64,000 nucleotides of DNA from contig JASMLC010000003.1 of NCBI GenBank assembly GCA_030748895.1, positions 3,621 through 67,620 of the forward strand, given 5' to 3'. Shown here piece after piece: positions 35,727 through 54,435 of this stretch (positions are counted from its first letter, which is position 1; every line of letters starts with the position of its first letter). Source of the stretch: Candidatus Poseidoniia archaeon (GTDB lineage Archaea; Thermoplasmatota; Poseidoniia; MGIII; CG-Epi1). Below the pieces are notes generated by a model. That model worked only from the letters and a program-made list of their open reading frames with translations. It had not been told where the DNA came from and searched no databases. The translations under genes and the position numbers were made by a program.

Positions 35727-36104
35727 ATGGACGACGACGATGGTAGTGTAATAATTTTCATGACTACCGGCCCCGCCACGCCGCAGCGCTGCGCGACGCC
35801 ATTCTATATGGCGACCATGGCAGCAGCGATGGACAGTGAAGCGCAGATGGTGTTCCAGATTGATGGTACCCTGCTGCTGAAGAGAGGCGTCGCCGAAAAC
35901 CTCGACGCCGTGGAAGGAGGCAAGAAGATTATTGATTTCATCCGCGAGGCGAAGGAGATGGGCGTGGAAATGTACGTCTGCTCCGCTTCGCTGGCGTTGC
36001 ACGGCATGACCAAGGAGGACCTCATCGAGGAGTGCGACGACGTGGTGGGTGCAGCCTACATGACCGAGGCGGGGCTGGAGAGCGACATGGTGCTGACTTA
36101 CTGA
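35727..36104 (+). CDS. dsrE: Second DsrE-family sulfurtransferase
   Basis: RCATPFYMA..AAAMD.E..MVF..DG..LL, YVCSASL; start refined to ATG at 35727. Confidence 0.85.
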   Translation: MDDDDGSVIIFMTTGPATPQRCATPFYMATMAAAMDSEAQMVFQIDGTLLLKRGVAENLDAVEGGKKIIDFIREAKEMGVEMYVCSASLALHGMTKEDLIEECDDVVGAAYMTEAGLESDMVLTY

Positions 36105-36565: not shown

Positions 36566-36568
36566 CGC

Positions 36569-37291: not shown

Positions 37292-37297
37292 CTGAGG

Positions 37298-38518: not shown

Positions 38519-39572
38519 CAGAATAATGGTCATCGGCGGCGGGCCGGCCGGCCTTGAAGCGGCGCGTGGCGTCGTCGAGCTGGGATACGAGCTGGTGCTG
38601 GTGGAGCAACGGAACGAATTGGGCGGCACCCCCATCTCGGCCAGCTACGCGGCGCTGACGCCCGACATGGAAGATACCGAAGTGGCAATGGCGCGCATGG
38701 TTAACGCCGTCACGAACGATTCGCTCGCGGACATCCGGCTCGACAGCACTATTACGGCCGTCGAGGGGACCGCGCCCGACCTGAGCGTTACGCTCGAGAC
38801 GGAGGGCGGGTCCGAAGTGGTCGAGGTCGGCGCCGTGGTCGTCGCCACCGGATTCAAGCACTTCGACCCCGGCAAGGAGACGCAGCGCTACGGTTACTAC
38901 GAGTACGACGACGTAATCACGCTGGTCGACGCCGAGAAGATGCTCAAGGCGGGCAAGTTTGTCCGGCCGTCGACAGGGGAGCCGCCGAAGCAGGTCTGCT
39001 TCATCCAGTGCGTCGGCAGCCGCGACCGCCAGCTGGGGAACAAGTGGTGCTCGAAGGTCTGCTGCGGTATCGCCACCAAAGAGGCCATTGAAATCCGGCA
39101 GCTGCTGCCGGACTGCAAAGTAATCGTATTCTACATCGACATGCGCATGTACGGCTTCTGGGAGGATGAACTCTACTGGAAGGCGCAGGAGGAGGAGAAA
39201 GTCGCCTTCATCCGCGGTATCGTCAGCGAAGTCACCATGCGGGGGGACTCGGTCATGGTCAAGGGCGAGGATACCACTATGGGGCGGCCGATGGAGGTGT
39301 TGATGGACGTCGTCATCCTGTCCGTCGGGATGGAGCCCAGCGACGGCACCATCGCGATGGCCGAAATGTTCAACCTGCCGCTCGAATGTCACGGCTGGAT
39401 AGAGACCGTGGGTGGTGCGCTGAACACAGTGCAGACCCCGGTCGACGGAATTTTCGTCGCCGGCGCGGCCGCGGGACCGGCCGACCTCGAGGATTCCATC
39501 TCAATGGGGGGTGCCGCAGCGCTCAAGGCATGCGCGTTCGTGCGCCGCATCCAGCTGCCGGTAGTCGAATAA
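38508..39572 (+). CDS. shdrA: sHdr flavoprotein subunit A (short HdrA)
   Basis: IGGGPAG, QCVGSRD, CSKVCCG, FYIDMR; short form lacking the HdrA ferredoxin insert. Confidence 0.92.
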   Translation: MSNNRIMVIGGGPAGLEAARGVVELGYELVLVEQRNELGGTPISASYAALTPDMEDTEVAMARMVNAVTNDSLADIRLDSTITAVEGTAPDLSVTLETEGGSEVVEVGAVVVATGFKHFDPGKETQRYGYYEYDDVITLVDAEKMLKAGKFVRPSTGEPPKQVCFIQCVGSRDRQLGNKWCSKVCCGIATKEAIEIRQLLPDCKVIVFYIDMRMYGFWEDELYWKAQEEEKVAFIRGIVSEVTMRGDSVMVKGEDTTMGRPMEVLMDVVILSVGMEPSDGTIAMAEMFNLPLECHGWIETVGGALNTVQTPVDGIFVAGAAAGPADLEDSISMGGAAALKACAFVRRIQLPVVE

Positions 39573-39573
39573 C

Positions 39574-40341
39574 ATGCTCTACGATTCGTTGACCGTCCAG
39601 GAAGTGGTCGACTCCGAATCTTCGGCAGAATTCCTGAAGGAGGCGACCAAGCTCGCCACTTTGCGCGAGCTCGAAAACATCGCCCAGCGACTGGAGGCGA
39701 AACAGGAGCTGTTCGCAGAGCTGCTCGCCCCTAAACGGCTCGCAGCTTTGGCGAAGGCGGACTTCGTCCTGCTGCTGAGCCACGTCTTCTCAATCCGGCG
39801 CAAGGCACGCAGGCTGCTGCGGCTGGTCGGCGTCGAGCCCTTCCGCCAACAAACGCAGGAGCTGCTCTACGGCGAGGGCGACGTGGGCGACCGCTTCGAG
39901 CGCTTCCTGACCGCGTTCGAGGGGAAGCTCGATGAGCGCCGGTCCATCAACCTCGCCAGCGAACTGCTCCACTTCCACGACCCCGAGCAGTACTGCCTCT
40001 GGACCAGCTGGGTCTGGGACCCCGCCACCGGCTCGGGCGCGCTGCCGATGGTCGTGCAGGAAGGGGTCGAAATCGGCGGTGCAAGCCCCGCGGAGCGGTA
40101 CCGCAACGTCGGCGCCGCAGTGCGGCTGGTGAACGAGGTCGGGCAGGCGCGGAACCTCTCCGGGAACGCCGCCGGCATGCTGGGCACCAACCTGCTCCTC
40201 GCCTGCGTCCACGCCGTCTACATGTACACCGTCTTCCGGCTCAAGCTTTCGGACGAATTCAACCGCATCCTGCCGGAACTCCCCGAGCTTGTCGAGCGGG
40301 TGCTCGGCGTGCGCGGGCTGGAGGTGGCTGCACGTGGGTGA
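39574..40341 (+). CDS. shdrH: sHdr-associated hypothetical protein (sHdrH/Hyp)
   Basis: Position between shdrA and the second C/B module; ELLHF..PE.Y.LWTSWVWD motif. Confidence 0.7.
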   Translation: MLYDSLTVQEVVDSESSAEFLKEATKLATLRELENIAQRLEAKQELFAELLAPKRLAALAKADFVLLLSHVFSIRRKARRLLRLVGVEPFRQQTQELLYGEGDVGDRFERFLTAFEGKLDERRSINLASELLHFHDPEQYCLWTSWVWDPATGSGALPMVVQEGVEIGGASPAERYRNVGAAVRLVNEVGQARNLSGNAAGMLGTNLLLACVHAVYMYTVFRLKLSDEFNRILPELPELVERVLGVRGLEVAARG

Positions 40342-41614
40342 CCACAAGTATCAGGAATTCGTCGAGAAAGAGGAGGCTGTCATCGAAGGTATCGACGTCT
40401 CCGGCGCCTGGAACCGGATGTGGGTGCCGCGCGAACTGACCGAGTATGATTTTACTTTCCTCGACCGGGTCACCGACCTGTCGGGCGGCGAGTCTATGGG
40501 CTGGTGCTACCAGTGCGCCGAGTGCATCGGCGTCTGCCCGGTGGACAACGTCGGCTCGTATGGCCCGCGCAAGCTCTACCGCAAGCTGCAGACCGGGCTG
40601 GACCTGTTCAACCACCCCGACCTCTGGCTCTGCACCACCTGCAACAACTGCCTGCGGGTCTGCCCCAAGGAGGTGGACATGATGCAGATTATGCCGGCTG
40701 TACGCGAGCAGGCGATACTCGACGGCAACGTCCCCGGTGAATTGCAGGAGATGCTACAGAACGTCGCCGAGTACGGCAACCCGATGGGCGAGTCAGCGCG
40801 CAAGCGGATGCGCTGGTTGAAGAAGTTCGACGAGCCGGTGCGCGACCTCTCGAAGGAGCCGGGCGAGGTGGATGTGCTCTGGTACGTCAGCGACTACTTC
40901 AGCTACCACCCGCGCGGCAACGACGCCGCGAAGGCGATGGTGCGCGTCTTCAACCGGCTGGGGGTCGATTTCGGCATCCTCGGGCGCGACGAGCGCTGCG
41001 ACGGGGATTCGCAGCGGCTCTGCGGCGAGAGCGGGCTTTTCGAGGAGCTGGCGGAGCACAACCACGCGCTGTTCGAGCAGAACCCGCACGAGCGGCTGGT
41101 GGTGAGCGACCCGCACGCCTACAACGCCTTCCGGAACGAGTACCCGAAGCTGACCGGGACCGAATACAACGTCCAGCACTACACGCAGTTCCTGGCCGAA
41201 AAGGTGGAGCAGCTGACGGAAATGTTCACCGGCGAGTTTGCCCGCAAAGTCACCTTCCACGACCCCTGCTACCTCGGGCGGCACAACAACGAATACGAAG
41301 CTCCCCGCACGCTCATCGAGGCGGTCCCCGGCATCGAGTTCGTCGAGATGTTCTGCTGCAAGCAGCAGGGCTACTGCTGCGGCGGTGGCGGAGGCGGGAT
41401 GTGGCTCGACGGGATGGTCGCCGACCACACCACCGAGCGGCTGTCCGAGAACCGGGTCCGGGAGGCGGTCGAGGTCGGCGCCGAGGTGCTGGTAGTCTGC
41501 TGTCCCTACGAGGTCTCGCGCTTCGAGGACGCGGTGAAATCGACCGGGAACGATGGCAAGCTGGAGGTGCTCGATATCATCGAAATCATTGCCAGCTGCC
41601 TTGGAGACGGCTGA
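40334..41614 (+). CDS. Fused HdrC/HdrB-like subunit (sHdrC3B3-type, HdrD-like)
   Basis: CYQCAECIGVCP, CTTCNNCLRVCP, then HDPCYLGR, CCGGGGG, CCP; probable GTG start at 40334. Confidence 0.85.
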   Translation: MGDHKYQEFVEKEEAVIEGIDVSGAWNRMWVPRELTEYDFTFLDRVTDLSGGESMGWCYQCAECIGVCPVDNVGSYGPRKLYRKLQTGLDLFNHPDLWLCTTCNNCLRVCPKEVDMMQIMPAVREQAILDGNVPGELQEMLQNVAEYGNPMGESARKRMRWLKKFDEPVRDLSKEPGEVDVLWYVSDYFSYHPRGNDAAKAMVRVFNRLGVDFGILGRDERCDGDSQRLCGESGLFEELAEHNHALFEQNPHERLVVSDPHAYNAFRNEYPKLTGTEYNVQHYTQFLAEKVEQLTEMFTGEFARKVTFHDPCYLGRHNNEYEAPRTLIEAVPGIEFVEMFCCKQQGYCCGGGGGGMWLDGMVADHTTERLSENRVREAVEVGAEVLVVCCPYEVSRFEDAVKSTGNDGKLEVLDIIEIIASCLGDG

Positions 41615-41624
41615 AGGAGCAAAT

Positions 41625-42365
41625 ATGAAAATCGCAGTCCTGCTGAAAATGGTGCCCGACCTGGTCGAGGAACTCGAGGTTGACGCTTCGGGGAAGGCGC
41701 TCGACACAGATGAGCTAAAGTTCAAGCTTAACGAATTCGACGACCACGCGCTGGAAGAGGCACTGCTGCTCGGTGGCGAGGAAGACGAGGTCGTTGCCCT
41801 TGCGCTGGAGGGTGAGGAAAACGAAAAGCTGCTTTTCACCGCGCTCGCAAAGGGAGCCAACCGTGCAGTGCAACTCACCGGCGTGCAGCCGGGGGGCTCG
41901 GGCGAACAGGCGACAGCCTTCGCCGCTGCGCTAGCAGAAAGCAGCTTCGATTTGATCCTGACCGGCGTCCAGTCGGTCGATGACCGCGAAGGGCAGCTGG
42001 GGCCGCTGCTAGCGGCGCAAATGGGACTTCCGTGCGTTTCGGTCGTCACCGGCGTATCTGTCGCCGATGGCGTCGCGACGGTAAACAAGGAGTATTCCGA
42101 CGGCGTGATGGCCGAGTTCGAGGTCACGCTCCCGGCGGTGCTCGGCATCCAGGCGGCGCGGCAGCCGCCGCGCTACGCGCCGGTCAGCAAGGTGCGGCAG
42201 GTGCAGCAATCGGCGACGCTCGAGACGCTGGCGGTTAACGCTGGCGAAGCCGGAACGGGCAGCCAAATCACCGCGATGGCGCCGCCCGAGACCGGTGCGG
42301 GGGCGAAGATGCTCGACGACGCGACCGCGCTGCTGGAAGTACTGCGCGGCGAGGGGGTGGCGTAA
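41625..42365 (+). CDS. etfB: Electron transfer flavoprotein beta subunit
   Basis: KMVPD, NEFDDHALEEAL, GVQSVD...GQLG, PRY; start ATG at 41625 with SD GGAG. Confidence 0.93.
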   Translation: MKIAVLLKMVPDLVEELEVDASGKALDTDELKFKLNEFDDHALEEALLLGGEEDEVVALALEGEENEKLLFTALAKGANRAVQLTGVQPGGSGEQATAFAAALAESSFDLILTGVQSVDDREGQLGPLLAAQMGLPCVSVVTGVSVADGVATVNKEYSDGVMAEFEVTLPAVLGIQAARQPPRYAPVSKVRQVQQSATLETLAVNAGEAGTGSQITAMAPPETGAGAKMLDDATALLEVLRGEGVA

Positions 42366-43300
42366 TGGGCGGCGTGATGGTCGTCTGCGAGCATCTCTCG
42401 GGCGAGTTCGCCGATATTACTTTCGAGCTACTCGGGCTCGCCGCTGGTCTCGGGGCGGGCGAGGTGAGCGCGGTCACCTTCGGCTCCATGGCGGGCAAGG
42501 CGGGCGAACTGGGCGCCGCCGGCAGCGTCATCGACGCTGGTGGCGACGACGACTACAACCCGGAGGGCTACGCAGCAGCCGTCAGTGCGGCGGTCGAGGC
42601 GTACTCGCCCGACCTGCTGCTGGTCGGCTCGACCTCGATGGGGATGGATATTGCCGGCCCGGTCGCCGCCGCGCGCGGGCTGCCGCTGGTCGCCTACTGC
42701 ACCGCCGTCGAGGGCGCCAACGGGGGGTTCGCCTGCAGCAGTTCGCTCTACGGCGGCAAGCTGGGCGTCAGCTCGCAGGTCTCCAGCCCGGCAGTGGCGA
42801 TGCTACTGCCGGGCGCCTGCGACGGGGACACGGGTCGCGTTACCGGGTCGCCTTCGGTGAGCGAGCTCGCCGTCCCGGAGTTGGCCGGGAAGGTGCGCTT
42901 CAGCCGGCTCATCGAGCCCGAGGCGGGGGACGTTGACATCACCCAGTCGGGAGTGCTGGTGGCGGTCGGCCGCGGAATCGGGAGCAAGGACGATATCGAG
43001 CTGGCGGAAGAGCTGGCCGAGCTGCTCGACGCCGACCTCGCCTGCTCGCGGCCCATCGTCGACGCCGGCTGGATGGAAAAATCACGGCAGATTGGTAAAT
43101 CGGGCTTCAAGGTCAAGCCACGTGTCTACATCGCCCTCGGTATCTCCGGCGCGCCGGAGCACATCGAAGGGATGAAGGATTCAGCGACGATTATCGCCAT
43201 CAACAGCGACGAGGACGCGCCTATCTTCGACGTCGCCCACTACGGCCTCGCCGAGGACCTGTTCGACGTCTGCGAAGAACTGGTCGAGGAGCTGGAATGA
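42365..43300 (+). CDS. etfA: Electron transfer flavoprotein alpha subunit
   Basis: VAVGRGI, ACSRPIVD, QIGKSG, YIALGISGAPEH, AINSD.DAPIF. Confidence 0.95.
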   Translation: MGGVMVVCEHLSGEFADITFELLGLAAGLGAGEVSAVTFGSMAGKAGELGAAGSVIDAGGDDDYNPEGYAAAVSAAVEAYSPDLLLVGSTSMGMDIAGPVAAARGLPLVAYCTAVEGANGGFACSSSLYGGKLGVSSQVSSPAVAMLLPGACDGDTGRVTGSPSVSELAVPELAGKVRFSRLIEPEAGDVDITQSGVLVAVGRGIGSKDDIELAEELAELLDADLACSRPIVDAGWMEKSRQIGKSGFKVKPRVYIALGISGAPEHIEGMKDSATIIAINSDEDAPIFDVAHYGLAEDLFDVCEELVEELE

Positions 43301-43318: not shown

Positions 43319-45331
43319 CTGCTCCCGCTCGCTGACCGGCTGGCGTTCCTGGCGCTGCTGGGCGCCTGCCTGGCGCTGGCGTGGCCGGGCTTCGCGCGGA
43401 TTTTCGCGACGGTGAGGCAAGGGCAGCCGGCGGACCGGTCGGACAACCTGCCGGGCCGCTTCGCGCGGGCGTTGCTGGAAGTGGCGATGCAGAAGCCACT
43501 CGCGAGCGCGCGGCCGCTGGTGAACATCTTCCACGCCTTCATCTTCTTCGGCTTCAGCTTCTACCTGCTGGTTAACGTGGTAGACGTGCTGGAAGCGTTC
43601 GTCCCCGACTGGGAAACGGTCTGGCAGGGGTCGGTGGCGGACGGCTTCAATCTGCTGACCGACCTCTTCAGCGTCTTCGTGCTGGTGGGGATGCTCTTCT
43701 TCCTGCACCGCCGCTTCATCACGAAACCAAAGGTGCTGGGGTTCAACTCCAACGTGCTGCTGCACCCCGGCGTCGCCGCGGGCGGTGTGCGGCGCGACTC
43801 ACTCATCGTCGGCGGCTTCATCCTGCTGCACGTCGGCTCGCGCTGGGTGGGCAGCGCGCTGCGGCTGGCGGAAGCGGGCGGCCCCGACCCCTGGATGCCG
43901 ACCGCCAGCCTGCTGCTGCCGCTCTTCACTGGAATGGAGCCGGGGCTGCTGGAGCAGGCGATTCGCGCCACGTGGTGGCTGGCGCTGGGGCTCATCCTGC
44001 TGTTCATTCCCTACTTCCCGCGCAGCAAGCACATCCACCTGATGGTGGCGCCGGTGAACCTGGCGCTGCGGCGCGAGACTCCGCGCGGTGCGCTCGACGC
44101 TGTGCAGGACCCCGCGCAGCCGGGCAGCACGACGCTGACGGGGCTGCCGTGGCCGCAGGTGCTCGACCCGTTCGCCTGCATCATGTGCACCCGCTGCCAC
44201 GAAGTCTGCCCGGCGCACGAGAGCGGCACACCGCTCTCGCCGTCAGCACTGGAAATTAACAAGCGCTACCACATCAACGCCAATGCGGCGGAAGTGGCGG
44301 CGGGCGGTGCGCGGGAGAGCCTGCTGGATTACGCTATCTCGCCCGACGCGACCTGGTCCTGCACCGCCTGCTACGCCTGCGTGCAGGTCTGCCCGGTCGG
44401 CAACGAACCGATGCACGACATTCTGGAGTTGCGCCGCAACCTGGTTTTCGACGGCAAGATGCCCGACGAGCTGGGCGAGGTGCTGCGCAGCCTTGACGAG
44501 CAGGGCAACTCCTTCGGCGAATCGAACCGCAAGCGGAGCAAGTGGGCGAAGAAGCTCGAGCTCAAGGACGCCCGCAAGGAGCCGGTCGACTTGCTCTGGT
44601 TCGTCGGCGACTTCGCTTCGTTCAACCAGTCCTGCACCGCCACTACCCGCAAGGTGGCCGAAGTACTGGCCGCCGCCGGAGTCGACTTTGGCGTCATCCG
44701 CAAGGGCGAGCGCAGCGCCGGCAACGACGTGCGGCGGGTGGGTGAGGAGGGACTCTTCGAGTCGCTCGCGGAACAGAATATCGAGCTGCTCGCGAAGTGC
44801 GAATTCAACCGCATCATGACCACTGACCCGCACACCTACAACGCGCTCAAGAACGAGTATCCGGCGCTCGGCGGCGAATACGAGGTGGTGCACTACTCGA
44901 CCCTGCTGGTCGAACTCATCGAGGCTGGGGCCATCCGGCTGGAGCAGCCGCTGGCAGGCAACGCTACCTTCCATGACCCTTGCTATCTCGGGCGCTACAA
45001 CAACATCTACGACGCACCGCGGCAGGTCATCGAGGGATGCGGGCTAAAGCTGGTCGAGATGCCGCGCAACCGCGAGAACTCGTTCTGCTGCGGCGCTGGC
45101 GGCGGGCAAATCTGGCTCAACGACCATGACGACATGACGCAGCGCCCTTCGGAGATGCGCATCGAGGAAGCGCTTTCGGTCGGTGTCTCGCGCTTCCTGG
45201 TCGCCTGCCCCAAGGATATGACCATGTATTCCGACGCGGCCAAGACTAGCGGACACGAGGAGGAAATTGCCGTCGAGGATATCATCGACCTGGTCCACTC
45301 GGCAATGGGAATCGAGGGTGTTGCCGCATGA
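43319..45331 (+). CDS. Membrane-bound ETF:quinone oxidoreductase (EMO/FadF-like: b-type membrane domain, 2x[4Fe-4S], CCG domains)
   Basis: TM His residues (FHAFIF, LLHVGS, KHIHL), CIMCTRCHEVCP, CTACYACVQVCP, HDPCYLGR, CCGAGGG; frame open to 43301, probable CTG start at 43319. Confidence 0.85.
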   Translation: MLPLADRLAFLALLGACLALAWPGFARIFATVRQGQPADRSDNLPGRFARALLEVAMQKPLASARPLVNIFHAFIFFGFSFYLLVNVVDVLEAFVPDWETVWQGSVADGFNLLTDLFSVFVLVGMLFFLHRRFITKPKVLGFNSNVLLHPGVAAGGVRRDSLIVGGFILLHVGSRWVGSALRLAEAGGPDPWMPTASLLLPLFTGMEPGLLEQAIRATWWLALGLILLFIPYFPRSKHIHLMVAPVNLALRRETPRGALDAVQDPAQPGSTTLTGLPWPQVLDPFACIMCTRCHEVCPAHESGTPLSPSALEINKRYHINANAAEVAAGGARESLLDYAISPDATWSCTACYACVQVCPVGNEPMHDILELRRNLVFDGKMPDELGEVLRSLDEQGNSFGESNRKRSKWAKKLELKDARKEPVDLLWFVGDFASFNQSCTATTRKVAEVLAAAGVDFGVIRKGERSAGNDVRRVGEEGLFESLAEQNIELLAKCEFNRIMTTDPHTYNALKNEYPALGGEYEVVHYSTLLVELIEAGAIRLEQPLAGNATFHDPCYLGRYNNIYDAPRQVIEGCGLKLVEMPRNRENSFCCGAGGGQIWLNDHDDMTQRPSEMRIEEALSVGVSRFLVACPKDMTMYSDAAKTSGHEEEIAVEDIIDLVHSAMGIEGVAA

Positions 45332-46740
45332 CCAACTACGGCTTCGTCATCGACAACCGGTCCTGCATCGGCTGCCACGCCTGCACGGTCGCCTGCAAGT
45401 CGGAGCACGATGTCCCCATCGGGGTGAACCGTACCCACGTCAAGTACATCGAGAAAGGGACCTTCCCAAACAGCAGCCGCGAATTCAGCGTCCACCGCTG
45501 CAACCATTGCGAGGACGCGCCCTGCACCACCCTCTGCCCCACCACCGCACTCTTCACCCGCGATGACGGCATCGTCGATTTCGACGATGCCCGCTGCATC
45601 GGCTGCAAGTCCTGCATGCAGGCGTGCCCCTACGACGCGCTCTACATAGACCCCAATCAGGGCACCGCGGCGAAGTGCAACTACTGCGTCCACCGGCTCG
45701 AGAATTCCTACGAGCCAGCCTGCGTTATCGTCTGCCCCACCGAGGCCATCATCTCGGGCGACCTTGACGACCCCGGCTCGAGGATAGCGCAGCTTGTTGC
45801 CATCCATGAGACGACGGTGCGCAAGCCCGATTCGGGAGCGAAACCAAATGTCTTCTACATCGATGCGAGCGAGGAGATGCTCGACCCCACCGCCACCGCG
45901 CGCACCGGGACCGGGATGTGGAGCGAGCAGGTCGCCGGCGTCGGCCATTTCGCGAAATACGCCGAGCAGCGGCTCGAAGCTGCCGACAACAACTCGCTGC
46001 TAATCCAGCTCGCGCTGGAAAAGAAGGCGAGCGAGGCGCCGCCGCGCGACCGCGCCATCATCTGCGACGTCGCCGCCAAGCTGGCCGACGAATCCCCGCA
46101 GGCTAAACGCGCCTACGACGCGCCGTCGAAAGGCGTCCTTTGGGGCTGGGAAGTCTCCGCCTACATCTGGACCAAGGCGATTGCGTCAGGGACCTATCTG
46201 GTCGCGACGCTGCTCTGGCTCGGCGACTATCTCGAGATGGAAACACAGCTCTGGTGGCTGGTGGTGGGAACCGGGCTTGCATTCCTGGGCATCACCGGCG
46301 CGCTGCTCGTGCTCGACCTTGACCGGCCCGACCGCTTTCTTTACATCATGCTGCGGCCCAACTGGAGCTCGTGGCTCGTCAGGGGCGCCTACCTGCTGGC
46401 GAGCTTCGGTGGAATCCTGGCCGCCACCACCGCGGTGCTGTTCTTCGAACTTGACGAATCGCTCCTGCGCTGGCTCGCCTACGCCGGCATCCCGCTCTCC
46501 GCGCTCACCGCCGTCTACACGGCGTGGCTGTTCCAGCAGGCGAAGGGACGCTCGTGGTCGCGCGACGCCGCGCTGCCGGCGAAGTTCATGCTCGAGACTA
46601 TTGTCATCGGCTCCGCCACGCTGCTGATACTTACCAGCCCCGCGCCGCTCTACATCCTGGCGGCACTGGCAGTACTGGCGGCAGCCCTGCTGCACGGCCG
46701 GAAAGTGGTGCAGGAGCCGCAACTGGAGAGCCTGATATGA
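45328..46740 (+). CDS. Fused 4Fe-4S electron-transfer subunit (PsrB/DmsB-like) and NrfD/PsrC-like membrane anchor
   Basis: CIGCHACTVAC, CNHCEDAPC, CIGCKSCMQACPY, KCNYC; then WGWEVSAY...DLDRPDRF...SWLVRGA TM region. Confidence 0.9.
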   Translation: MTNYGFVIDNRSCIGCHACTVACKSEHDVPIGVNRTHVKYIEKGTFPNSSREFSVHRCNHCEDAPCTTLCPTTALFTRDDGIVDFDDARCIGCKSCMQACPYDALYIDPNQGTAAKCNYCVHRLENSYEPACVIVCPTEAIISGDLDDPGSRIAQLVAIHETTVRKPDSGAKPNVFYIDASEEMLDPTATARTGTGMWSEQVAGVGHFAKYAEQRLEAADNNSLLIQLALEKKASEAPPRDRAIICDVAAKLADESPQAKRAYDAPSKGVLWGWEVSAYIWTKAIASGTYLVATLLWLGDYLEMETQLWWLVVGTGLAFLGITGALLVLDLDRPDRFLYIMLRPNWSSWLVRGAYLLASFGGILAATTAVLFFELDESLLRWLAYAGIPLSALTAVYTAWLFQQAKGRSWSRDAALPAKFMLETIVIGSATLLILTSPAPLYILAALAVLAAALLHGRKVVQEPQLESLI

Positions 46741-49526
46741 AGTCCGAAAAGACGTTTATCGAGCGGATGGCCGAGGGAATTGGTATCATTCCCCGCATCG
46801 ACCGCGAAGAGGCGCAAGGGGCGACGCGCCCCTTGCGCCACTACCCCGGCCCGGAAGAGTGGGACGACCATATCGAACTCGACGCCAACGCCTGGCCGGA
46901 GCGTGTCGAGCATCGCTACTCGCTAGTGCCAACCACCTGCTTCAACTGCGAATCAGCCTGCGGGATGCTCGCCTGGGTTGACAAGGAGACCGGCCGGGTG
47001 CGCAAGTTCGAGGGCAACCCGGCGCATCCCGCCAGCCGCGGCCGCAACTGCGCTAAGGGGCCGGCGACCATCAACCAGATTAACGATACCGAACGCATCC
47101 TGCACCCGCTGAAGCGCAAGGGCGACCGTGGCGCGGGAGAGTGGGAGCGCATCTCGTGGGAGCAGGCGCTGGACGAAATCTCGACGAAAATTCGCGACTC
47201 GCTCAACACCGGCGCACGCGAGCGGGTGGTCTACCACGTCGGCCGCCCCGGGCACGAAGGCTACGCCGAGCGGGTGCTGAAGGCATGGGGCGTCGATGGC
47301 CATAACTCGCACACCACCATCTGCTCGGCGGGAGCCCGCTGCGGCTACGCGCTGTGGCATAAGTTCGACCGGCCGAGCCCCGACCATTCCAGCGCGAAGG
47401 TCATCCTGCTCGTCAGCTCACATCTCGAGACCGGCCACTACTTCAATCCGCACGCACAGCGCATCGTCGAAGGCATGATGAACGGCGCCAAGCTCATCGT
47501 GCTCGACCCGCGGCTCTCGAACACCGCTTCGATGGCCGACCACTGGCTGCCGGTCTATCCCGGCTCCGAGCCGGCGCTGTTCCTCGCCATCGCTCGTTAT
47601 ATACTCGTCGAGGAGCTCTACGACCGTCGTTTCCTCGAGGAATGGGTCAACTGGCCGGAGTGGATGGCAGCCGCACACCCCGATGACGACGCGACGTTCG
47701 AGCACTTCGTCACGCGGCTGATTGAGCAATACGCGGAATACACCTTCGAGTTCGCCGCCGCGGAATGCCAGGTGCCGGTCGAGCAGGTCGCCGAAGTCGC
47801 AAAGGTGGTCGCCAGCGCCGGCAGCCGACTCTCGACCCATGTCTGGCGGGCGGGCGCCATCGGCAACCTCGGCGGCTGGCAGGTGGCACGCACGCTGCAT
47901 TTCCTGAACGTGCTCACCGGCTCGGTCGGCACCGAAGGGGGGACCTCGCCCAGCGCCTGGACCAAGTTCCACCCCACCTTCTTCGACGTACCGCCGCCGC
48001 AGGAGGCGTGGAACGAACTCATCTGGCCGCCCGAATACACACTCTCCCACTACGAGATGAGCCAGATACTGCCGCACCTGATCAAGGACGGGCGCGGCAG
48101 CATGGACGTCTACTTCACGCGGGTCTTCAACCCGGTCTGGACATTCCCCGACGGCTTCTCCTGGATTGAGATGCTCTCGAATGCGGAGGCGGTCGGCTGT
48201 CACATCGCGCTCACCCCGACCTGGAACGAGACCGCCTTCTTCGCCGACTACGTGCTCCCAATGGGGCACGCCAGCGAGCGGCACGACATCAACTCCTACG
48301 AAACGCACGCCGGGATGTGGATAGCGTTCCGCCAGCCGGTACTGCGCGAGTTCGCCCGTCGGCAGGGGAAGCCGGTGCGCTTCACCCACGAGGCCAACCC
48401 GGGCGAAGTGTGGGAGGAGGACGAGTTCTGGATTGAGCTCTCCTGGCACATCGACCATGACGGCTCGCTCGGCATCCGCAAGCACTTCGAGTCGCCGTAC
48501 CGGGCGGGCGAGTGTATCACCGTCGACGAATACTACCGCTACATCTTCGAGCACGTCAAGGGCTTGCCCGAGGCGGCCGCGGAAGAGGAGTTGTCGCCGC
48601 TGGACTACATGCGCAAGCATGGCGCCTTCCTGGTCGAGCCGGCGGTCTACGACAAGCACGAGACTGAAGTTGCCGACGGAGGCGTTGAAATCGAAGGCAC
48701 TCAGCGGCTCGGCTTCCCGACGCCGAGCCGCAAGCAGGAGTTCTACTCGCAGACGATGGTAGACTTCGGCCATCCCGAGCACGCAATCCCCGACTATCGC
48801 ATCCGCTCGCACATCCACCCCGAGCGTCTCAACCACGAGGCGGGCGAGTATGTGCTGCTGCCCAATTTCCGGCTGCCGACGCACATCCACTCGCGCTCGG
48901 CCAACTCGAAATGGCTGGCCGAGATTGCGCACCGCAACCCGGTCTGGCTCCATCCGCAGGACGCCCGCGAACTGGGCGTCAGCGACGGGGACCTGCTGAA
49001 AATCGAGACCGAAATTGGGCATTTCGTCGACAAGGTGTGGGTCACCGAATCCATCAAGCCCGGCATCGTCGGCTGCTCGCACCACATCGGGAGGTGGCGG
49101 CGGCAGCAGGACGCCGGCAACCGCTACATGTCGGCCAGGGTCGACATCACGAACCCGGAGCCGGGGCGCTGGCGCATGCGCACGCTCGCTGGTATCCGCC
49201 CGTGGAAATCGAAGGACGCCGACACCCGACGCGTGTGGTGGCGTGACGGTGGCGTCCACCAGAACCTGACGCACGCGGTGCAGCCCGACCCCATTTCTGG
49301 GGCGCACTGCTGGCTCCAGAAAGTTAAGCTCACGAAACCGGGCCTCGACGACGAATACGGTGATATCGAGGTCGATACCGACCGGTCATTCGCATACTTC
49401 AAGGAGTGGAACCAGTGGGCCAAGGATACCGAAACGCATCCCGACGGCTTGCGCAGGCCGCTCTGGATGGGGCGCCCGCTGACGCCCGCCAAAGGGCAGT
49501 TCTGGCTAAATAGCCGGGAGGAATGA
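46737..49526 (+). CDS. Mo/W-bisPGD oxidoreductase catalytic subunit, PsrA/PhsA/SoeA-like, no Tat signal
   Basis: CFNCESACG...CAKG FeS motif, HTTICS putative Cys ligand, DYVLPMGHASER, C-terminal molybdopterin-binding domain; start refined to ATG at 46737. Confidence 0.9.
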   Translation: MKSEKTFIERMAEGIGIIPRIDREEAQGATRPLRHYPGPEEWDDHIELDANAWPERVEHRYSLVPTTCFNCESACGMLAWVDKETGRVRKFEGNPAHPASRGRNCAKGPATINQINDTERILHPLKRKGDRGAGEWERISWEQALDEISTKIRDSLNTGARERVVYHVGRPGHEGYAERVLKAWGVDGHNSHTTICSAGARCGYALWHKFDRPSPDHSSAKVILLVSSHLETGHYFNPHAQRIVEGMMNGAKLIVLDPRLSNTASMADHWLPVYPGSEPALFLAIARYILVEELYDRRFLEEWVNWPEWMAAAHPDDDATFEHFVTRLIEQYAEYTFEFAAAECQVPVEQVAEVAKVVASAGSRLSTHVWRAGAIGNLGGWQVARTLHFLNVLTGSVGTEGGTSPSAWTKFHPTFFDVPPPQEAWNELIWPPEYTLSHYEMSQILPHLIKDGRGSMDVYFTRVFNPVWTFPDGFSWIEMLSNAEAVGCHIALTPTWNETAFFADYVLPMGHASERHDINSYETHAGMWIAFRQPVLREFARRQGKPVRFTHEANPGEVWEEDEFWIELSWHIDHDGSLGIRKHFESPYRAGECITVDEYYRYIFEHVKGLPEAAAEEELSPLDYMRKHGAFLVEPAVYDKHETEVADGGVEIEGTQRLGFPTPSRKQEFYSQTMVDFGHPEHAIPDYRIRSHIHPERLNHEAGEYVLLPNFRLPTHIHSRSANSKWLAEIAHRNPVWLHPQDARELGVSDGDLLKIETEIGHFVDKVWVTESIKPGIVGCSHHIGRWRRQQDAGNRYMSARVDITNPEPGRWRMRTLAGIRPWKSKDADTRRVWWRDGGVHQNLTHAVQPDPISGAHCWLQKVKLTKPGLDDEYGDIEVDTDRSFAYFKEWNQWAKDTETHPDGLRRPLWMGRPLTPAKGQFWLNSREE

Positions 49527-49562: not shown

Positions 49563-50702
49563 ATGATTGAACTGCCGATAGCAGCCGCGGCCGGGAAGAA
49601 TTGCGAAAGCGATGCGGGAGGGACGATAACGCATGTGCGCACGAGTCAGGCAGCAGCGCTGGTGATGGGGGCCGAGAAGGGGCAGTTCTACCGCGGGGCG
49701 AAACTGCACTCGATTAACGTCCTGCTCGACTATGAGGATGGCTGCCATGCGCGGTGCGGCTACTGCGGCCTGGCCAAGTCGCGCGAATCGGAGGATGACT
49801 GGACCGACCGCTCATTCATCCGGGTCAACTGGCCGCTGGTCTCTCTCGATCAGGTAAACGAGTCCATCAGCAGCGGCTCGGTGCCGGACATCGAACGCGT
49901 CTGCGTCTCGATGGTACTCAATCGCGGGGCGCGGGAGGATACGATTGACGCGGTCCGCAAGCTCTCGGAATCCACCTCACGCATCTCAATCCTGCTGATG
50001 CCAACGGTAATTGACAAGGAATGGCTAATCCGGGCGAAAGAGGCAGGGGCCGACATGGTCGCCACTGCGCTTGACGCGGCGACCCGTAAGGTGTTCAACT
50101 CCGTGCGCGGCAAGGACGTGCAGGGGCCGCTGGACTGGGATCAGTACTGGGAAATCGTCGTCGACACCATCGAGGTCTTCGGCCCGCGCAACGCCGGCAT
50201 CCACCTTGTCGCAGGGCTGGGCGAGACCGAGCAGGAGATGGTGGCGACCATGCAGGAGGCGTACGACATGGGCGCGCTGACGCACCTTTTCTCGTTCAAC
50301 CCCGAGCCTGGAACGGCCCTCGGCGAGTGGCCGCAGCCGCCAATCGGTTCCTACCGCCGCATACAGCTCGCGCGCTACATCATCAACGAGCATTTCGGCC
50401 GCGGCGACGCGATGGCCTTTGATGACAAGGGGAATATCGTGGACTTCGACCTCGAGTCGGAACTGCTCAAGCAGCTCATTGACGAGGGGAAGGCGTTCAT
50501 GACATCGGGCTGTGCCGGGAAAACGGTCGATTGCGCCTGCAATCGACCGTTCGGGAACTGCACGCCCTACCAGGCGGCGCAGGGACGCTGGCGCAACTTC
50601 CCGATTCCACCCGAGGAATCCGATATCGTCCACGCGCGGCGGCAGCTGCTGGACTACGACGGAAAGGAGGATGAGGAAATTGATCCCTTTGACGATGACT
50701 GA
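49563..50702 (+). CDS. lipS2: Radical SAM lipoyl synthase subunit LipS2
   Basis: CHARCGYC (CX3CX2C) and C-terminal TSGC...CNRP motif. Confidence 0.82.
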   Translation: MIELPIAAAAGKNCESDAGGTITHVRTSQAAALVMGAEKGQFYRGAKLHSINVLLDYEDGCHARCGYCGLAKSRESEDDWTDRSFIRVNWPLVSLDQVNESISSGSVPDIERVCVSMVLNRGAREDTIDAVRKLSESTSRISILLMPTVIDKEWLIRAKEAGADMVATALDAATRKVFNSVRGKDVQGPLDWDQYWEIVVDTIEVFGPRNAGIHLVAGLGETEQEMVATMQEAYDMGALTHLFSFNPEPGTALGEWPQPPIGSYRRIQLARYIINEHFGRGDAMAFDDKGNIVDFDLESELLKQLIDEGKAFMTSGCAGKTVDCACNRPFGNCTPYQAAQGRWRNFPIPPEESDIVHARRQLLDYDGKEDEEIDPFDDD

Positions 50703-51717
50703 AACTCGCCAGGATATCATCGATTTCTGTATGACTGCCCCCGAGGCGGAGCTCGAGCCGCTTTTCGAGCAGGCGTGGACGCAGTCCCGCCAGCGTTTTG
50801 GCAACAGCATCTCACTCAATGTTCCCGGAATGGTCTCGTACGAGACTGAGCACATTGCCGAAGACGACCCCTTCCGGTTCCCCTCGATTTCGATTACCGG
50901 CCCCGCCTGCTCCCTCGGCTGCGAGCATTGCGATGCGAAGATGGTTGAGACCATGATACCAGCCACCACTCCGGAGGCGCTCTGGGATATGTTTCTCAAA
51001 ACCGTCGAGCGGGGGGGCACCGGCTGCCTTGTGAGCGGTGGCTCGACCCTCGCGGGCGATGTGCCGCTACTGCGGTTCATCCCGACCATCAAGCGCGCCA
51101 AGCAGGAGCTGGGGCTCGCGATTGTCGTCCATACGGGCGTCGTCTACGAGGAGGTGGCCGCCGCGCTGGGAGAAGCAGGTATCGACGGGGCGATGCTCGA
51201 TATCATGGGCTCGAACGACACCATCCGCGAAATCTACCACCTCGACCTCATGAAGGAGGCGTTCGAGCATTCGATGGAGCTGCTCAACAGGTACGGAGTG
51301 CCGCTGATGCCGCACATCGTGGTCGGGCTGCAGCGCGGTGAGTTGCGGGGCGAAGCCGAAGCAGTGCGCATGATTGCCCGCCACAACCCGGAGCGGGTGA
51401 TGGTAGTCGCGTTCAAGCCACTGCTCGGGACACCGATGGAGAACTCGCCCACCAGCACCCCGCTGGAGATTGCCCGCGTAGTGCTCGCCTGCCGGCTGGC
51501 GATGCCGGATACGACGGTCATCATGGGCTGCGCGCGCCCGCCGGGGGAGCACAAGGTCGAGACCGACCGACTGGTCATCCGGGCCGGGGTGAACGGGATG
51601 GCGTACCCTTCCGAGGAAGGGCACGACTTTGCGCGCGAGCTGGGGCTCGACATCTCGGTCTCGTCGGGCTGCTGCTGCCTGATGGATGACGAAGCGAAGG
51701 GAGGCTGCTGCAATTGA
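50695..51717 (+). CDS. lipS1: Radical SAM lipoyl synthase subunit LipS1
   Basis: CSLGCEHC, GCARP and terminal CCC motifs; start uncertain (50671-50695). Confidence 0.82.
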   Translation: MTETRQDIIDFCMTAPEAELEPLFEQAWTQSRQRFGNSISLNVPGMVSYETEHIAEDDPFRFPSISITGPACSLGCEHCDAKMVETMIPATTPEALWDMFLKTVERGGTGCLVSGGSTLAGDVPLLRFIPTIKRAKQELGLAIVVHTGVVYEEVAAALGEAGIDGAMLDIMGSNDTIREIYHLDLMKEAFEHSMELLNRYGVPLMPHIVVGLQRGELRGEAEAVRMIARHNPERVMVVAFKPLLGTPMENSPTSTPLEIARVVLACRLAMPDTTVIMGCARPPGEHKVETDRLVIRAGVNGMAYPSEEGHDFARELGLDISVSSGCCCLMDDEAKGGCCN

Positions 51718-53372
51718 GCCGCGAAGCGGGAAAGTGGCGGTTGCTCGACACCGGCGTCCACACCGCCGCCGAGAACATGGCGCTGGACCAGGCACTCTTC
51801 GACGCGCGCGTTGCCGGCGAGGTCCCGAACACGCTGCGCTTCATGCAATTCTCACCTTCGGCGGTGCTCGTTGGCCACCACCAAGTAGTTGCCCAAGAGG
51901 CACGGGTTGACTGGTGCGCGAAGCACAGTGTCGATATCAACCGGCGATTGACTGGCGGCGGCGCGATTTACTTTGACGCGACCCAGATTGGGTGGGAACT
52001 GGTCGGCTCCCTCGACGATTTTACGGGCCGGGACATGACCGGGCTGACCCGTACCATCTGCGAGGCGGCCGCCGCCGGCCTGCAGGAACTCGGAGTGGCG
52101 GCGGAGTTCAGGCCGCGCAACGACATTGAGGTCGAGGGACGCAAAATCTCGGGCACCGGCGGGGTCGCCGACGACGGGGTCTTCCTCTACCAGGGGACGG
52201 TGCTGGTCGAGTTCGACATCGAGGCGATGCTGCTGGCGCTACGCATTCCGAACGAGAAACTCACGCCGCGAGGGCTCGAGACCGCTCGCGAGCGGGTCTC
52301 CTGCCTTTCGGACCTGCTGTCGCAGGTTCCCGCGAGGGAGCAAATCCAGGCGGCGCTCGCCAGCGCCTTCGCGCACGCCTTCGAAATCGAGTTCGAAACC
52401 GGCGAGCTGACGGCATGGGAGCAGGAGCGATTTGCGTCAAAACTGCCTGAAATCGAGTCGGACGACTGGATAAACGCCATCACGGCGCCGGCCGAGGACA
52501 AGCAAATCTACACTTCAATCCACAAGCGACCGGGAGGGATGCTGCGCATTCACGCCGCGGTCGACGTCAAGCGCTCGTGGCTGCGGCAGGTCCTGATTAC
52601 GGGCGACTTCTTCATCAATCCCCGCCGGGCAATCATGGACCTGGAGGCGGAGTTGATGAACACCCCGTTTCCCCAGGTGCGCCCGGTCATCATGCGCTTC
52701 TTCGAAAAGCACAAGGTGGATCTGGTCGGGCTCACCCCGGGGGATTTCTGCGACGCGGTCAAGCTTGCGCTGGAGCAGACCACCTACAGTGGCATCGGGA
52801 TTGCGGAGGCGGACTCGAGCTCGGTCTATCCCGTAAACGTCCCCGAAGGCAAGAGCATCGAGCAGGTTATGTCGGACGCGACCGTCATGTTGCTCCCCTA
52901 TTGCGCAAAGCTGCCTGATTGCGACTACCGCTTCAAGCAGGGATGCGACGAGTGCGGTCTCTGTAGTATGGGTGATGCCTACCGCATGGCGCGGGAGAAT
53001 GGGCTGGAAGCGGTCACCATCGTCAAGTTCAAGCATCTCAAGGCAACACTCGCTGAAATGAAGGCGCAAGGCGTCAAGTCCTGGATTGGTTGCGCTTGCG
53101 AGGCGTTCTTCATCAAGCGCAACGAGGCGTTCCGTGACGCCGGGATTCCCGGCGTGGTGCTGGATATCGTTGGCAAGACTTGCTACCAGCTGGGCGAGGA
53201 GGGCGAGGCGTACGCTGGCACCTTCGAGGCGCAGGCGGACCTGAAGCTGCCGCTGCTGGAGGCGGTAATGGACAACGTCAACCCGGAATTCAACGCCAGG
53301 TTCATTCAACCCACGACGCCTACTACGACCGCCGACCAGCATGCCAGCGCCGAGCGGAATTTCAGCGTATGA
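51714..53372 (+). CDS. lplA: Lipoate:protein ligase sLpl(AB) type with extra Cys-rich C-terminal (DUF116-like) domain
   Basis: NMALD, RRLTGGGAIYFD, RNDIEVEGRKISGTG, GDFF; tail LLPYC...CDECGLC...IGCACE. Confidence 0.88.
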   Translation: MSREAGKWRLLDTGVHTAAENMALDQALFDARVAGEVPNTLRFMQFSPSAVLVGHHQVVAQEARVDWCAKHSVDINRRLTGGGAIYFDATQIGWELVGSLDDFTGRDMTGLTRTICEAAAAGLQELGVAAEFRPRNDIEVEGRKISGTGGVADDGVFLYQGTVLVEFDIEAMLLALRIPNEKLTPRGLETARERVSCLSDLLSQVPAREQIQAALASAFAHAFEIEFETGELTAWEQERFASKLPEIESDDWINAITAPAEDKQIYTSIHKRPGGMLRIHAAVDVKRSWLRQVLITGDFFINPRRAIMDLEAELMNTPFPQVRPVIMRFFEKHKVDLVGLTPGDFCDAVKLALEQTTYSGIGIAEADSSSVYPVNVPEGKSIEQVMSDATVMLLPYCAKLPDCDYRFKQGCDECGLCSMGDAYRMARENGLEAVTIVKFKHLKATLAEMKAQGVKSWIGCACEAFFIKRNEAFRDAGIPGVVLDIVGKTCYQLGEEGEAYAGTFEAQADLKLPLLEAVMDNVNPEFNARFIQPTTPTTTADQHASAERNFSV

Positions 53373-53379
53373 GGCACTG

Positions 53380-54435
53380 ATGCCCCTGGAGTGGGACCTA
53401 ATCGTGGTCGGTGGCGGCCCCGGGGGCGCCGCCGCGGCCGCCGTTGCGGCCGTGGCGGGACTGGAGACGCTGTTACTCGAGCGCGGCGGGACGTTGCGGC
53501 ACAAGCCATGCGGCGGAATCCTGCCCGAAATCACCGAGGAACTCATCGAGGAAGTGTTTGGCGCCCCGCTGCCGCCCGAGGTGCTGGCGGAGCAGGGGGA
53601 GCTTCGCCTGCGCTACACCCCCCCGAGCGGCGAGGCGAACGGCGGACGCGTGCGGGAGAGTCGCCTGCTCAACGTGAAGCGAGACCATTTCGACCAGTGG
53701 CTGCGCGACCGCGCGGCGCTCGCGGGCGCGACCGTGCAGCATGACGCGCGGGTTTCGGACGTGGAAGCGAACGGCGGATTCAGCATCAGCTACAGCCAGC
53801 GTGGCAAGGAGCGGCAAGCAACGGCTGCACAGCTGGTGGGCGGTGACGGAGTCCACTCACTGGTTCGGCGCAGGCTCGCGCCAGACGCGGCCGCGCCGAA
53901 AATGCTCGTCGGCCAGCGGCTGGTGCGGGTCGCTGGTGAATTGCCGGCCGACTTCCACTGCGTTTTCGCCGGGATGCTCAGCCCGTTCTACGCCTACACC
54001 GTACCGAAGGGCGGGCTGCTCAAGATCGGGAGCGGGATGACTGAGGAGGAACGGACCGACCTGATGCCATCGCTCGACCGCTTCAGCGAATGGCTCGAGC
54101 AGAACGGCATAGCCAAGCTCGGCGAAGTGGTCCAGCAGGAGGGCTGGGCAATCCCCTTCGGGGAACCGCGGCTCGACGCTGCGGGTGCGCTGCTCGTCGG
54201 CGACGCGGCAGGGCTCTGCAACCCACTCTCGGGGGAGGGCATCCGGCTGGCCATCGAGAGCGGACAGTTGGCGGCCGAGGCGATTATCGAGTCGGGAGCG
54301 CGGTCGCCTGTACAGAACTACCGTGAAGGCGTCGCCGGCATCGCACAGATGGTAGCCGCGCTGCATCGCATCGTGCTCGCCACCGACGATGAAACGCGCG
54401 AAAAGTTCGTCGCCGCTGAACTCGCTCGCCCGTAG
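53380..54435 (+). CDS. lipT: FAD-dependent geranylgeranyl-reductase-like oxidoreductase, probable LipT
   Basis: GGGPGG, KPCGG, GDAAGLCNPLSGEGI; last gene of the lipS/lpl module; start ATG at 53380. Confidence 0.75.
   Translation: MPLEWDLIVVGGGPGGAAAAAVAAVAGLETLLLERGGTLRHKPCGGILPEITEELIEEVFGAPLPPEVLAEQGELRLRYTPPSGEANGGRVRESRLLNVKRDHFDQWLRDRAALAGATVQHDARVSDVEANGGFSISYSQRGKERQATAAQLVGGDGVHSLVRRRLAPDAAAPKMLVGQRLVRVAGELPADFHCVFAGMLSPFYAYTVPKGGLLKIGSGMTEEERTDLMPSLDRFSEWLEQNGIAKLGEVVQQEGWAIPFGEPRLDAAGALLVGDAAGLCNPLSGEGIRLAIESGQLAAEAIIESGARSPVQNYREGVAGIAQMVAALHRIVLATDDETREKFVAAELARP

Follow-up and report, generated by a model that had tools for sequence, protein, structure and literature searches.

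Within a 64,000-nucleotide stretch of DNA from a Candidatus Poseidoniia archaeon (GenBank assembly GCA_030748895.1, contig JASMLC010000003.1, positions 3,621 to 67,620 of the forward strand; the whole stretch is referred to here as the window) we find a two-gene module, BC-A, which very probably encodes a cytoplasm-facing, quinone-linked molybdoenzyme of sulfur metabolism. BC (45328..46740, + strand) is a 470-residue fusion of a PsrB/TtrB-like iron-sulfur (FeS) protein to an NrfD/PsrC-type membrane anchor, and A (46737..49526, + strand) is the catalytic subunit, a 929-residue protein of the Mo/W-bisPGD type with no signal peptide. The two open reading frames (ORFs) occupy exactly the interval, 45328-49526, given for them in the original prediction, which had been made from the letters of the window. 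Related modules are spread over two domains of life, and no description of the BC-A module was found in the literature searched. The best-supported role is that of a sulfite:quinone oxidoreductase. BC-A would resemble SoeABC in its working mode, which is the sense in which SoeABC-like is used here, and we judge this role to have about an even chance of being correct.

The catalytic subunit A and the fused BC subunit

The start of A, read in the sequence, is the ATG at 46737, which overlaps the stop codon of BC (ATATGA). This ATGA overlap (46737..46740, + strand) is a sequence sign indicating translational coupling of the two genes. The 929-residue start is also the one used by gene callers on five independent contigs, all with an identical protein. 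A GTG at 46524, proposed as the start by the ORF finder, was rejected: it would make A overlap BC by 216 nt and, considered as the beginning of a form with a twin-arginine (Tat) signal, it is not conserved and brings no hydrophobic region.

Pfam recognises Molybdop_Fe4S4 (residues 63-116), Molybdopterin (120-521) and Molydop_binding (710-803) in A, and PF00384, PF01568 and PF04879 all exceed the Pfam cut-offs. The four cysteines of the FS0 cluster, C68, C71, C75 and C105, are invariant among homologues, as is C196, which lies within HNSHTTICSAGAR. The residues around C196 (HNSHTTICS in the window) belong to the motif HNSHTxICSAGAR, which is itself invariant in the A homologues. C196 aligns with Cys173 of PsrA (2vpw_A), which we take to be the Mo ligand in the PsrA structure, and it is the predicted Mo ligand of A. 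Both the four-Cys FS0 motif and H[NS]SH[TS]x[IVL]CS are kept in 82 of 82 full-length A homologues, while an RR motif with a hydrophobic region upstream of FS0 was found in none of the 82 and is missing from A of the window. The absence of a twin-arginine leader, the FS0 motif and the probable Cys ligand (HTTICS), all read originally from the one protein, are therefore found throughout the set. A also has an N-terminal extension of ~60 hydrophilic residues with a conserved pattern, S-x-IE-x-x-AE-x-x-G-x-IP ... YP-x-P-x-EW.

None of the NCBIfam models reached its cut-off with A. PhsA scored best (193 bits, cut-off 694), followed by DmsA/YnfE (169 bits, cut-off 778), type II DMSO reductase (153 bits), Fdh-alpha (141 bits, cut-off 666), ArrA (119 bits) and TtrA (112 bits, cut-off 1750). 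Among solved structures the best match is PsrA (2vpw_A, E=1.5e-37), then ArrA.

Residues 1-182 of BC form a ferredoxin domain for four [4Fe-4S] clusters (Pfam Fer4_11, E=5.6e-23), which is matched over its whole length by PsrB of T. thermophilus (2vpw_B, E=5e-48). Of the NCBIfam models TtrB matches BC best, its 178 bits falling short of the cut-off of 416. The domain has 16 cysteines, arranged in four CxxCxxCxxxC-type motifs; among 20 archaeal homologues they do not vary at all, and conservation across the phyla (71 homologues) is at least 97%. The domain is followed by a hydrophilic linker (residues 183-270) with conserved W198, Q201 and G204-V-G-H207, and R261-x-Y-D-x-P-x-K-G is conserved ahead of helix 1. 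The anchor itself spans residues 272-462. The Pfam NrfD model, which like Fer4_11 scores above its cut-off, matches residues 268-435 (E=2.9e-14) and covers profile positions 7-194 of 313. AlphaFold places six transmembrane helices, with pLDDT >90, at 274-298, 306-330, 349-372, 377-403, 416-436 and 440-462; the FeS domain of this model is of low confidence and the membrane part alone was used. In a Foldseek search the membrane part resembled PsrC (2vpw_C) with a probability of 1.0 and a TM-score of 0.54 on the target.

The topology of BC is predicted to be N-in, C-in, and the Lys and Arg residues of the loops, counted from the sequence, number 12 in those predicted to be cytoplasmic and 0 in the outer ones. 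Given that there is no export signal and that B and C are fused, the positive-inside rule would place the FeS domain of BC on the cytoplasmic side, together with both termini and the conserved loop DLDRPxRF...RPxxxSWLxxG. The anchor retains the first four-helix bundle, which in PsrC holds the quinone site. Bacterial BC orthologues are longer, at ~535-560 aa, and have eight hydrophobic segments (helices). Alignment shows that the Poseidoniales-type BC is without ~66 residues, corresponding to two helices of the second four-helix bundle, and the six-helix anchor is peculiar to Poseidoniales-type archaea. The shortened membrane part noted originally is thus real in the window, with its six helices, but it is a feature of the lineage and not of the family.

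Together A and BC have the composition of the complex iron-sulfur molybdoenzymes: a Mo-bisPGD subunit with FS0, a four-cluster ferredoxin and a haem-free NrfD anchor. The absence of a Tat signal, the loop charges and the domains all agree with the earlier reading of a two-gene, cytoplasm-facing, quinone-type enzyme of this kind.

Placement and distribution of the BC-A family

Neighbour-joining trees were built from 317 columns of the N-terminal half of A, with 100 bootstraps. As references they contained PhsA, TtrA, DmsA, NasA and FdhA from annotated plasmids, and segments of PsrA and ArrA from alignments to Protein Data Bank (PDB) structures. The family is monophyletic with 61-78% support, and unnamed Tat-bearing and Tat-less relatives join it in a larger clade supported at 70-72%. 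The PsrA/PhsA/ArrA group does not include it, and DmsA, NasA and FdhA branch outside its assemblage; the grouping of TtrA, at 13% support, is not meaningful. A is 26-29% identical to every labelled reference, PsrA, PhsA, TtrA, ArrA and DmsA among them. On these comparisons with PsrA, PhsA, TtrA, ArrA, DmsA, NasA and FdhA the BC-A family is a clade of its own in the DMSO-reductase (MopB) superfamily and uncharacterised. This is as had been proposed from the window, and the trees gave no clustering with the formate, nitrate or DMSO reductases, which was to have counted against the proposal. NCBIfam has no model matching SoeA and the PDB no entry for it; tblastn hits on plasmids of Tritonibacter, Thioclava, Caballeronia and Azoarcus, taken up as SoeA candidates, proved to be MopB enzymes of other kinds.

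The nearest outgroup includes two proteins, P0126 (1115 aa) and P0182 (1123 aa), that share the N-terminal YPPxExW motif and carry a Tat signal. Their signals imply that a periplasmic sister clade exists, and the family has probably been derived from such an enzyme by losing export.

The distribution of the family is broad. When one genome per GTDB species was scanned, at least 593 species, from the sea and from soil, had a relative. Among the 80 best are Poseidoniales, Marinimicrobia, Saprospiraceae, Lewinellaceae, Flavobacteriaceae and Cyclobacteriaceae as well as Planctomycetota, Acidobacteriota, KSB1 and Calditrichota; carriers in culture within these 80 are Flavilitoribacter nigricans, Lutibacter aestuarii and also Gaetbulibacter. 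Further carriers, Thermomicrobium roseum, Rhodococcus jostii RHA1 and a number of haloarchaea, come from plasmid records, with A subunits 50-56% identical to that of the window. Taking the database matches and the GTDB scan together, A subunits 57-90% identical occur in two domains and many phyla, and the module is also present in thousands of metagenomic sequences. The 120 best database matches to A are 63-90% identical and 868-954 aa long, apart from one fragment of 768 aa, and where their source is named it is Ca. Poseidoniales or Thermoplasmatota. The 120 best matches to BC are all fusions, of 466-489 aa. In a library clustered at 50% identity the family has a single full-length representative at the head of the list, P0121 (59% identical); the next full-length relatives in it are 33-46% identical and many of them have Tat signals. 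The names given to family members in databases are 'molybdopterin-dependent oxidoreductase', 'formate dehydrogenase' or possible DMSO reductase.

Several characterised systems share parts of this organisation. A, the B domain and the fold of the anchor find their best structure and profile matches in PsrABC, the polysulfide reductase of Thermus thermophilus (2vpw), and PhsABC, a thiosulfate reductase, which have the Cys at the same position. However, PsrA and PhsA are Tat-exported reductases of the outer face, whereas A has no Tat signal and falls outside their clade; the identity is ~28% over the N-terminal half, A is ~170 aa longer, and PhsC, unlike the BC anchor, is a cytochrome b. TtrABC, the tetrathionate reductase encoded as ttrBCA, has the same B, C, A order, its TtrB is the best match for the FeS domain, and TtrA is similarly long at ~1020 aa, but TtrA reaches the periplasm by Tat and B and C are not fused. 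ActB of alternative complex III and QrcB show that subunits of this superfamily do become fused, ActB being an A-like subunit joined to B. In these proteins, though, the cofactor has been lost, they face the periplasm, and the fusion is A with B rather than B with C. A fusion of B with C is not listed in the review of the NrfD family (PMC8076601).

Gene neighbourhoods and the proposed function

To describe the surroundings of the module all ORFs of 83 non-redundant loci were clustered and the recurrent families were checked in Pfam and NCBIfam; sulfur genes were scored within 10 kb in the 46 loci whose flanks extend at least 5 kb in each direction, the full-flank subset. The gene directly before A is BC in 76 of the 83 loci, and in 45 of the 46 with full flanks, so that the fusion of B and C in a single ORF and the BC-then-A order, first noted in the window, hold well beyond it. 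A SulP sulfate permease gene directly follows A in 29 loci. Fusions of an MBL domain with a rhodanese, resembling persulfide dioxygenase, were found in 24 loci in a bacterial form and in five in an archaeal form. Also recurrent are rhodanese (17 loci), a flavoprotein resembling type III SQR (11), a split YeeE/YedE sulfur transporter (10), TusA/DsrE (about 6), TauE (5), a Crp-type regulator (7), MoeB (6) and TraB (7, all in Poseidoniales).

At least one sulfur gene was present within 10 kb in 32 of the 46 full-flank loci, which does not suggest the frequent occurrence away from sulfur genes that would have spoken against a function in sulfur metabolism. The association with sHdr, on the other hand, did not generalise. 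The module is indeed embedded in an sHdr cluster in the window, but sHdr genes lie beside it in only 3-4 of the 83 loci (the window, L003, L080 and in part L055), and BC-A is not a regular component of sHdr clusters. Checking for co-occurrence with sHdr, as had been proposed, showed the module to be far more often with the persulfide-dioxygenase-like-rhodanese fusion, SQR, rhodanese, YeeE and SulP or TauE, in heterotrophs that are aerobic and in marine archaea. A Poseidoniales contig from the Guaymas plume, for example, has the order ArsR, TusA, DsrE, persulfide dioxygenase/rhodanese, BC, A and TauE. Plasmid pRHL3 of R. jostii RHA1 carries rhodanese, TrxA, MBL, ArsR, MBL, DsrE, TusA, BC, A and Mrp/NBP35, and in T. 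roseum a CsoR-family regulator precedes BC and A. In the closest relative (L006, from an uncultured euryarchaeote, with A 90% identical) the module stands behind a persulfide-dioxygenase-like-rhodanese gene in place of sHdr and emo. The module would therefore serve either sulfite-producing system, and it has moved between sulfur contexts within one archaeal lineage.

In two of the loci with the SQR-like gene, both from Bacteroidota/Saprospiraceae (L039, at 8121-9311, and L067), that gene is inserted between BC and A, and nowhere else was the module seen so closely tied to sulfide oxidation. An Mrp/NBP35 (ApbC/MrpORP-like) gene comes directly after A in RHA1 (L087, 12799-13968) and in Natrinema (L089, 12005-13165); this Fe-S carrier may be a dedicated maturation factor that replaces a TorD-type chaperone. 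Two further loci depart from the usual arrangement. On a 1.1-Mb contig of bacterium 3_bin.21 (L001/L007, 10001-12856) an A homologue, 72% identical, has no adjoining BC and is flanked by genes for large proteins without Pfam domains and for multihaem cytochromes. It may have another partner, or its BC may be located elsewhere. On plasmid pAZKH of Azoarcus sp. KH32C (L088, 4245-8487) separate genes follow one another as B, C and A in an operon that includes a TorD chaperone, and genes for a sensor kinase, a sigma-54 regulator and a binding protein of the PhnD type adjoin it. The A of this operon shares 29% identity with the one in the window, and the system looks Ttr/Psr-like, with the BC-A order in the absence of the fusion.

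What the contexts have in common points to sulfite, although on this evidence we regard sulfite as the physiological substrate with about even confidence. In the sHdr-LbpA system the cytoplasmic oxidation of sulfane sulfur yields sulfite (PMC11094781). The other recurrent contexts, SQR with the persulfide-dioxygenase-like protein, and YeeE thiosulfate import with rhodanese and the persulfide-dioxygenase-like protein, would likewise make cytoplasmic sulfite. Each of them is without an enzyme for the step after sulfite, and has SulP or TauE beside A. It is because these contexts produce sulfite in the cytoplasm and place an anion exporter next to A that we favour the sulfite role. Sulfite from the cytoplasm would be oxidised to sulfate at A, with two electrons passing through FS0 and the four clusters of BC to (mena)quinone. 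Its source would be the sHdr-LbpA system in the window and, in most other carriers, the persulfide-dioxygenase-like-rhodanese protein acting after SQR or thiosulfate import; the sulfate would leave through the SulP or TauE transporter. The regulators found with the module (BigR-like ArsR, CsoR family) are from families with known sulfane-sulfur or sulfite sensors. The hosts are overwhelmingly aerobes, in which a quinone-feeding dehydrogenase would be sensible and an internal sulfur reductase would not.

Several observations weigh against this reading. For every member of the family it is gene context that indicates the substrate. The AlphaFold model of A, computed from a 10-sequence alignment, had a mean pLDDT of 50 and was set aside both for a fold search and for reading the active site. 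No scored sulfur gene lies within 10 kb in 14 of the 46 full-flank loci. Among characterised proteins the highest scores belong to reductases (PsrA/PhsA in the case of A, TtrB in that of B), and the BC-then-A order is that of ttrBCA. The SoeABC of Aquifex, too, reportedly reduces sulfur and tetrathionate in vitro. Finally, several operons have TusA and DsrE directly upstream, which could mean that the substrate is a protein-bound persulfide.

This last point leads to the alternative that A acts on sulfane sulfur and not on sulfite. The enzyme might oxidise TusA- or DsrE-bound persulfide stepwise, with a logic like that of SoxCD, as an O2-independent counterpart of persulfide dioxygenase, or it might reduce polysulfide, thiosulfate or tetrathionate on the inside of the membrane. 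In Poseidoniales, Marinimicrobia, RHA1 and L003 the operon does have TusA and DsrE immediately upstream of the module, and this speaks for the explanation, as do the matches to PsrABC, PhsA and TtrB and the ttrBCA-like order. Yet in most loci the persulfide step is already covered by a persulfide-dioxygenase-like gene or by sHdr, which leaves sulfite unserved, and SulP or TauE adjoining A would suit an oxyanion product. With PsrA, PhsA and TtrA the family also shares no more than 26-29% identity, and it is not part of their clades. In the mostly aerobic hosts an internal reductase would create a futile cycle against SQR and the dioxygenase, and even a reversible sulfur reductase, the other role originally suggested, fits poorly with aerobic hosts and O2-dependent persulfide-dioxygenase-like neighbours. 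We therefore consider action on sulfane sulfur unlikely, though by no means far-fetched.

The remaining explanations are much less probable. In Marine Group II the combination 'molybdopterin oxidoreductase, 4Fe-4S ferredoxin and TraB' has been read as a hint of DMSO respiration (PMC6741140), and TraB adjoins BC-A in seven Poseidoniales loci with DmsA/YnfE as the second NCBIfam match. A respiratory reductase of DMSO or of another S- or N-oxide, used for anaerobic respiration in marine archaea, is nevertheless very improbable: the DmsA/YnfE score of 169 bits is far below the cut-off of 778, the tree puts DmsA outside the family's clade, A without a Tat signal would face the cytoplasm, and the neighbours across phyla are sulfur genes, with no dms or tor genes or TorD chaperones. 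The name 'formate dehydrogenase' in the NCBI record of a 73%-identical protein, the generic COG0243 used by JGI and the 141 bits for Fdh-alpha might suggest a formate dehydrogenase or nitrate reductase. That is hardly credible given the cut-off of 666, the branching of FdhA and NasA outside the assemblage and the absence of formate or nitrate genes nearby. Formate dehydrogenases (FdhF, FdnG) furthermore have a His next to the Sec/Cys ligand, and in A the ligand Cys is followed by Ser. Lastly, the position directly behind emo, itself a quinone-reducing exit for sHdr electrons, raises the idea of a non-catalytic module that lacks the cofactor, like QrcB or ActB, and wires electrons from sHdr and Etf to quinone. 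We give this almost no weight, as FS0 and the ligand Cys, like the molybdopterin-binding domains, are invariant throughout the 82 homologues and the module mostly occurs away from sHdr, Etf and Emo.

For the favoured role in sulfite oxidation the obvious comparison is SoeABC, the known cytoplasm-facing sulfite:quinone oxidoreductase, whose anchor is expected to be inverted (PMC8076601). The enzymes of Allochromatium vinosum and Aquifex aeolicus share with BC-A a catalytic subunit that has no Tat signal and so faces the cytoplasm, a Mo-bisPGD subunit with FS0, a four-cluster FeS unit, a haem-free anchor of the NrfD type, and a position downstream of cytoplasmic sulfite-producing pathways (rDsr or sHdr). 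They differ in having three separate subunits and an eight-helix SoeC, whereas here B and C are fused and the archaeal anchor has six helices. The SoeABC gene order is A-B-C and not BC-A. In size the catalytic subunits are alike, SoeA being reportedly a protein of ~109 kDa and A having 929 residues. The carriers of BC-A are also unlike those of SoeABC, being Thermoplasmatota, Halobacteria, Bacteroidota, Actinomycetota, Chloroflexota and others. SoeC is reported only from Proteobacteria, Clostridia and Aquificae and is always a separate eight-helix protein (PMC8076601), bSreA/SoeA has only five archaeal matches (PMC10100899), and KEGG-based ocean surveys assign soeABC mainly to Alphaproteobacteria. 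JGI annotates members of the family by COG0243 only and never by KEGG soeA, with KEGG-derived names being used for neighbouring clades, and the names of 20 representative clusters of relatives are generic or 'thiosulfate/polysulfide reductase chain A'. Naming and published taxonomic range together suggest that the family is distinct from what is now called SoeABC. BC-A probably works like SoeABC and differs from it in subunit organisation, gene order, anchor and taxonomic range.

The sulfur locus in the window and the wider meaning of the module

In the window the module follows a run of genes on the + strand, identified by Pfam, for TusA, DsrE, an ArsR/BigR-like regulator, DsrE, LbpA, sHdrC1, sHdrB1, sHdrA, sHdrH, sHdrB3, EtfB and EtfA (34415..43300). 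Next is a gene for an Emo-like membrane Fe-S/CCG protein (43412..45331, + strand; Pfam Fer4 and CCG, named after PMC11094781), directly upstream of BC; Emo is the ETF:menaquinone oxidoreductase of type II sHdr clusters (PMC11094781). Downstream of A are LipS1, LipS2, an Lpl-DUF116 protein and a LipT-like FAD protein (49563..54435, + strand; Pfam Radical_SAM, BATS, LplA-B_cat, DUF116 and FAD_binding_3). By its Pfam content the window holds a complete type II sHdr-LbpA cluster as defined in PMC11094781, a definition (shdrC1B1AHB3-etfAB-emo) that contains no molybdoenzyme. The stop codon of emo overlaps the start of BC in another ATGA (GCATGA; 45328..45331, + strand), read in the sequence and present as the same junction on five independent contigs. 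From this layout BC-A would be a transcriptional and translational continuation of the shdr-etf-emo unit.

An assembly artefact was rejected as an explanation for the arrangement, which has been assembled in the same form in five independent contigs from different samples. The region is chromosomal, from a genome of ~66% GC, with CcmF, SerRS, acetyl-CoA synthetase and fumarase as housekeeping neighbours. Nearly identical DNA is present in at least 20 seawater or marine metagenome runs. Metatranscriptome contigs from a hydrothermal vent and from seawater, 90-95% alike, span emo, BC, A and the lip genes, and relatives of this unit are probably transcribed in situ, with DNA carry-over being possible in contig data. 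The ArsR-type regulators had also raised the possibility of arsenic metabolism, which was dismissed: ars genes are absent and the regulator resembles BigR, with a match of 55.8 bits that is below the cut-off.

Other features of the locus were noted. Genes for tRNA-Met and tRNA-Asn lie directly upstream of the sulfur cluster (34035-34220), and the GC content falls from ~0.69 to 0.58-0.64 across the first 8 kb of the cluster (34001-42000); this may be the border of an island acquired horizontally. The cluster has TusA and two DsrE-family genes (34415-36104); type II archaeal sHdr clusters of Thermoplasmatota are stated to have DsrE3B only (PMC11094781). The lipoate-protein ligase (51714-53372, 552 aa) has DUF116 fused at its C-terminus. 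Two long ORFs, of 797 and 643 aa (13311-15704, - strand, and 28110-30041, + strand), have no Pfam match and may be spurious in GC-rich DNA.

Marine sulfur surveys score sulfite oxidation by soeABC, sorAB, SUOX or aprAB-sat, and often report, as in Bohai Sea sediments, that enzymes of direct sulfite oxidation are rare or absent (PMC12345210). It is possible, although we would place it somewhat short of an even chance, that the BC-A family is a second, independently organised cytoplasmic sulfite:quinone oxidoreductase, and the main route from sulfite to sulfate in carriers scored as lacking one. With the same reserve, these carriers would be Marine Group II archaea, Marinimicrobia, marine Bacteroidota, Planctomycetota, haloarchaea and some Actinomycetota and Chloroflexota. 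Among the carriers of the module are archaea and bacteria that rank with the most abundant of the plankton. Several carriers are in culture, and the question is directly testable. The fused FeS-NrfD subunit, with its natural six-helix version, also offers a minimal model for cytoplasm-facing NrfD anchors. If the module does oxidise sulfite, the gap that follows sHdr and persulfide dioxygenase would be closed and the count of complete sulfur oxidisers would change. Sulfide oxidation that is now treated as mere detoxification would gain an energy yield at the level of quinone, and in heterotrophs with SQR and persulfide dioxygenase it would be energy-conserving and complete to sulfate.

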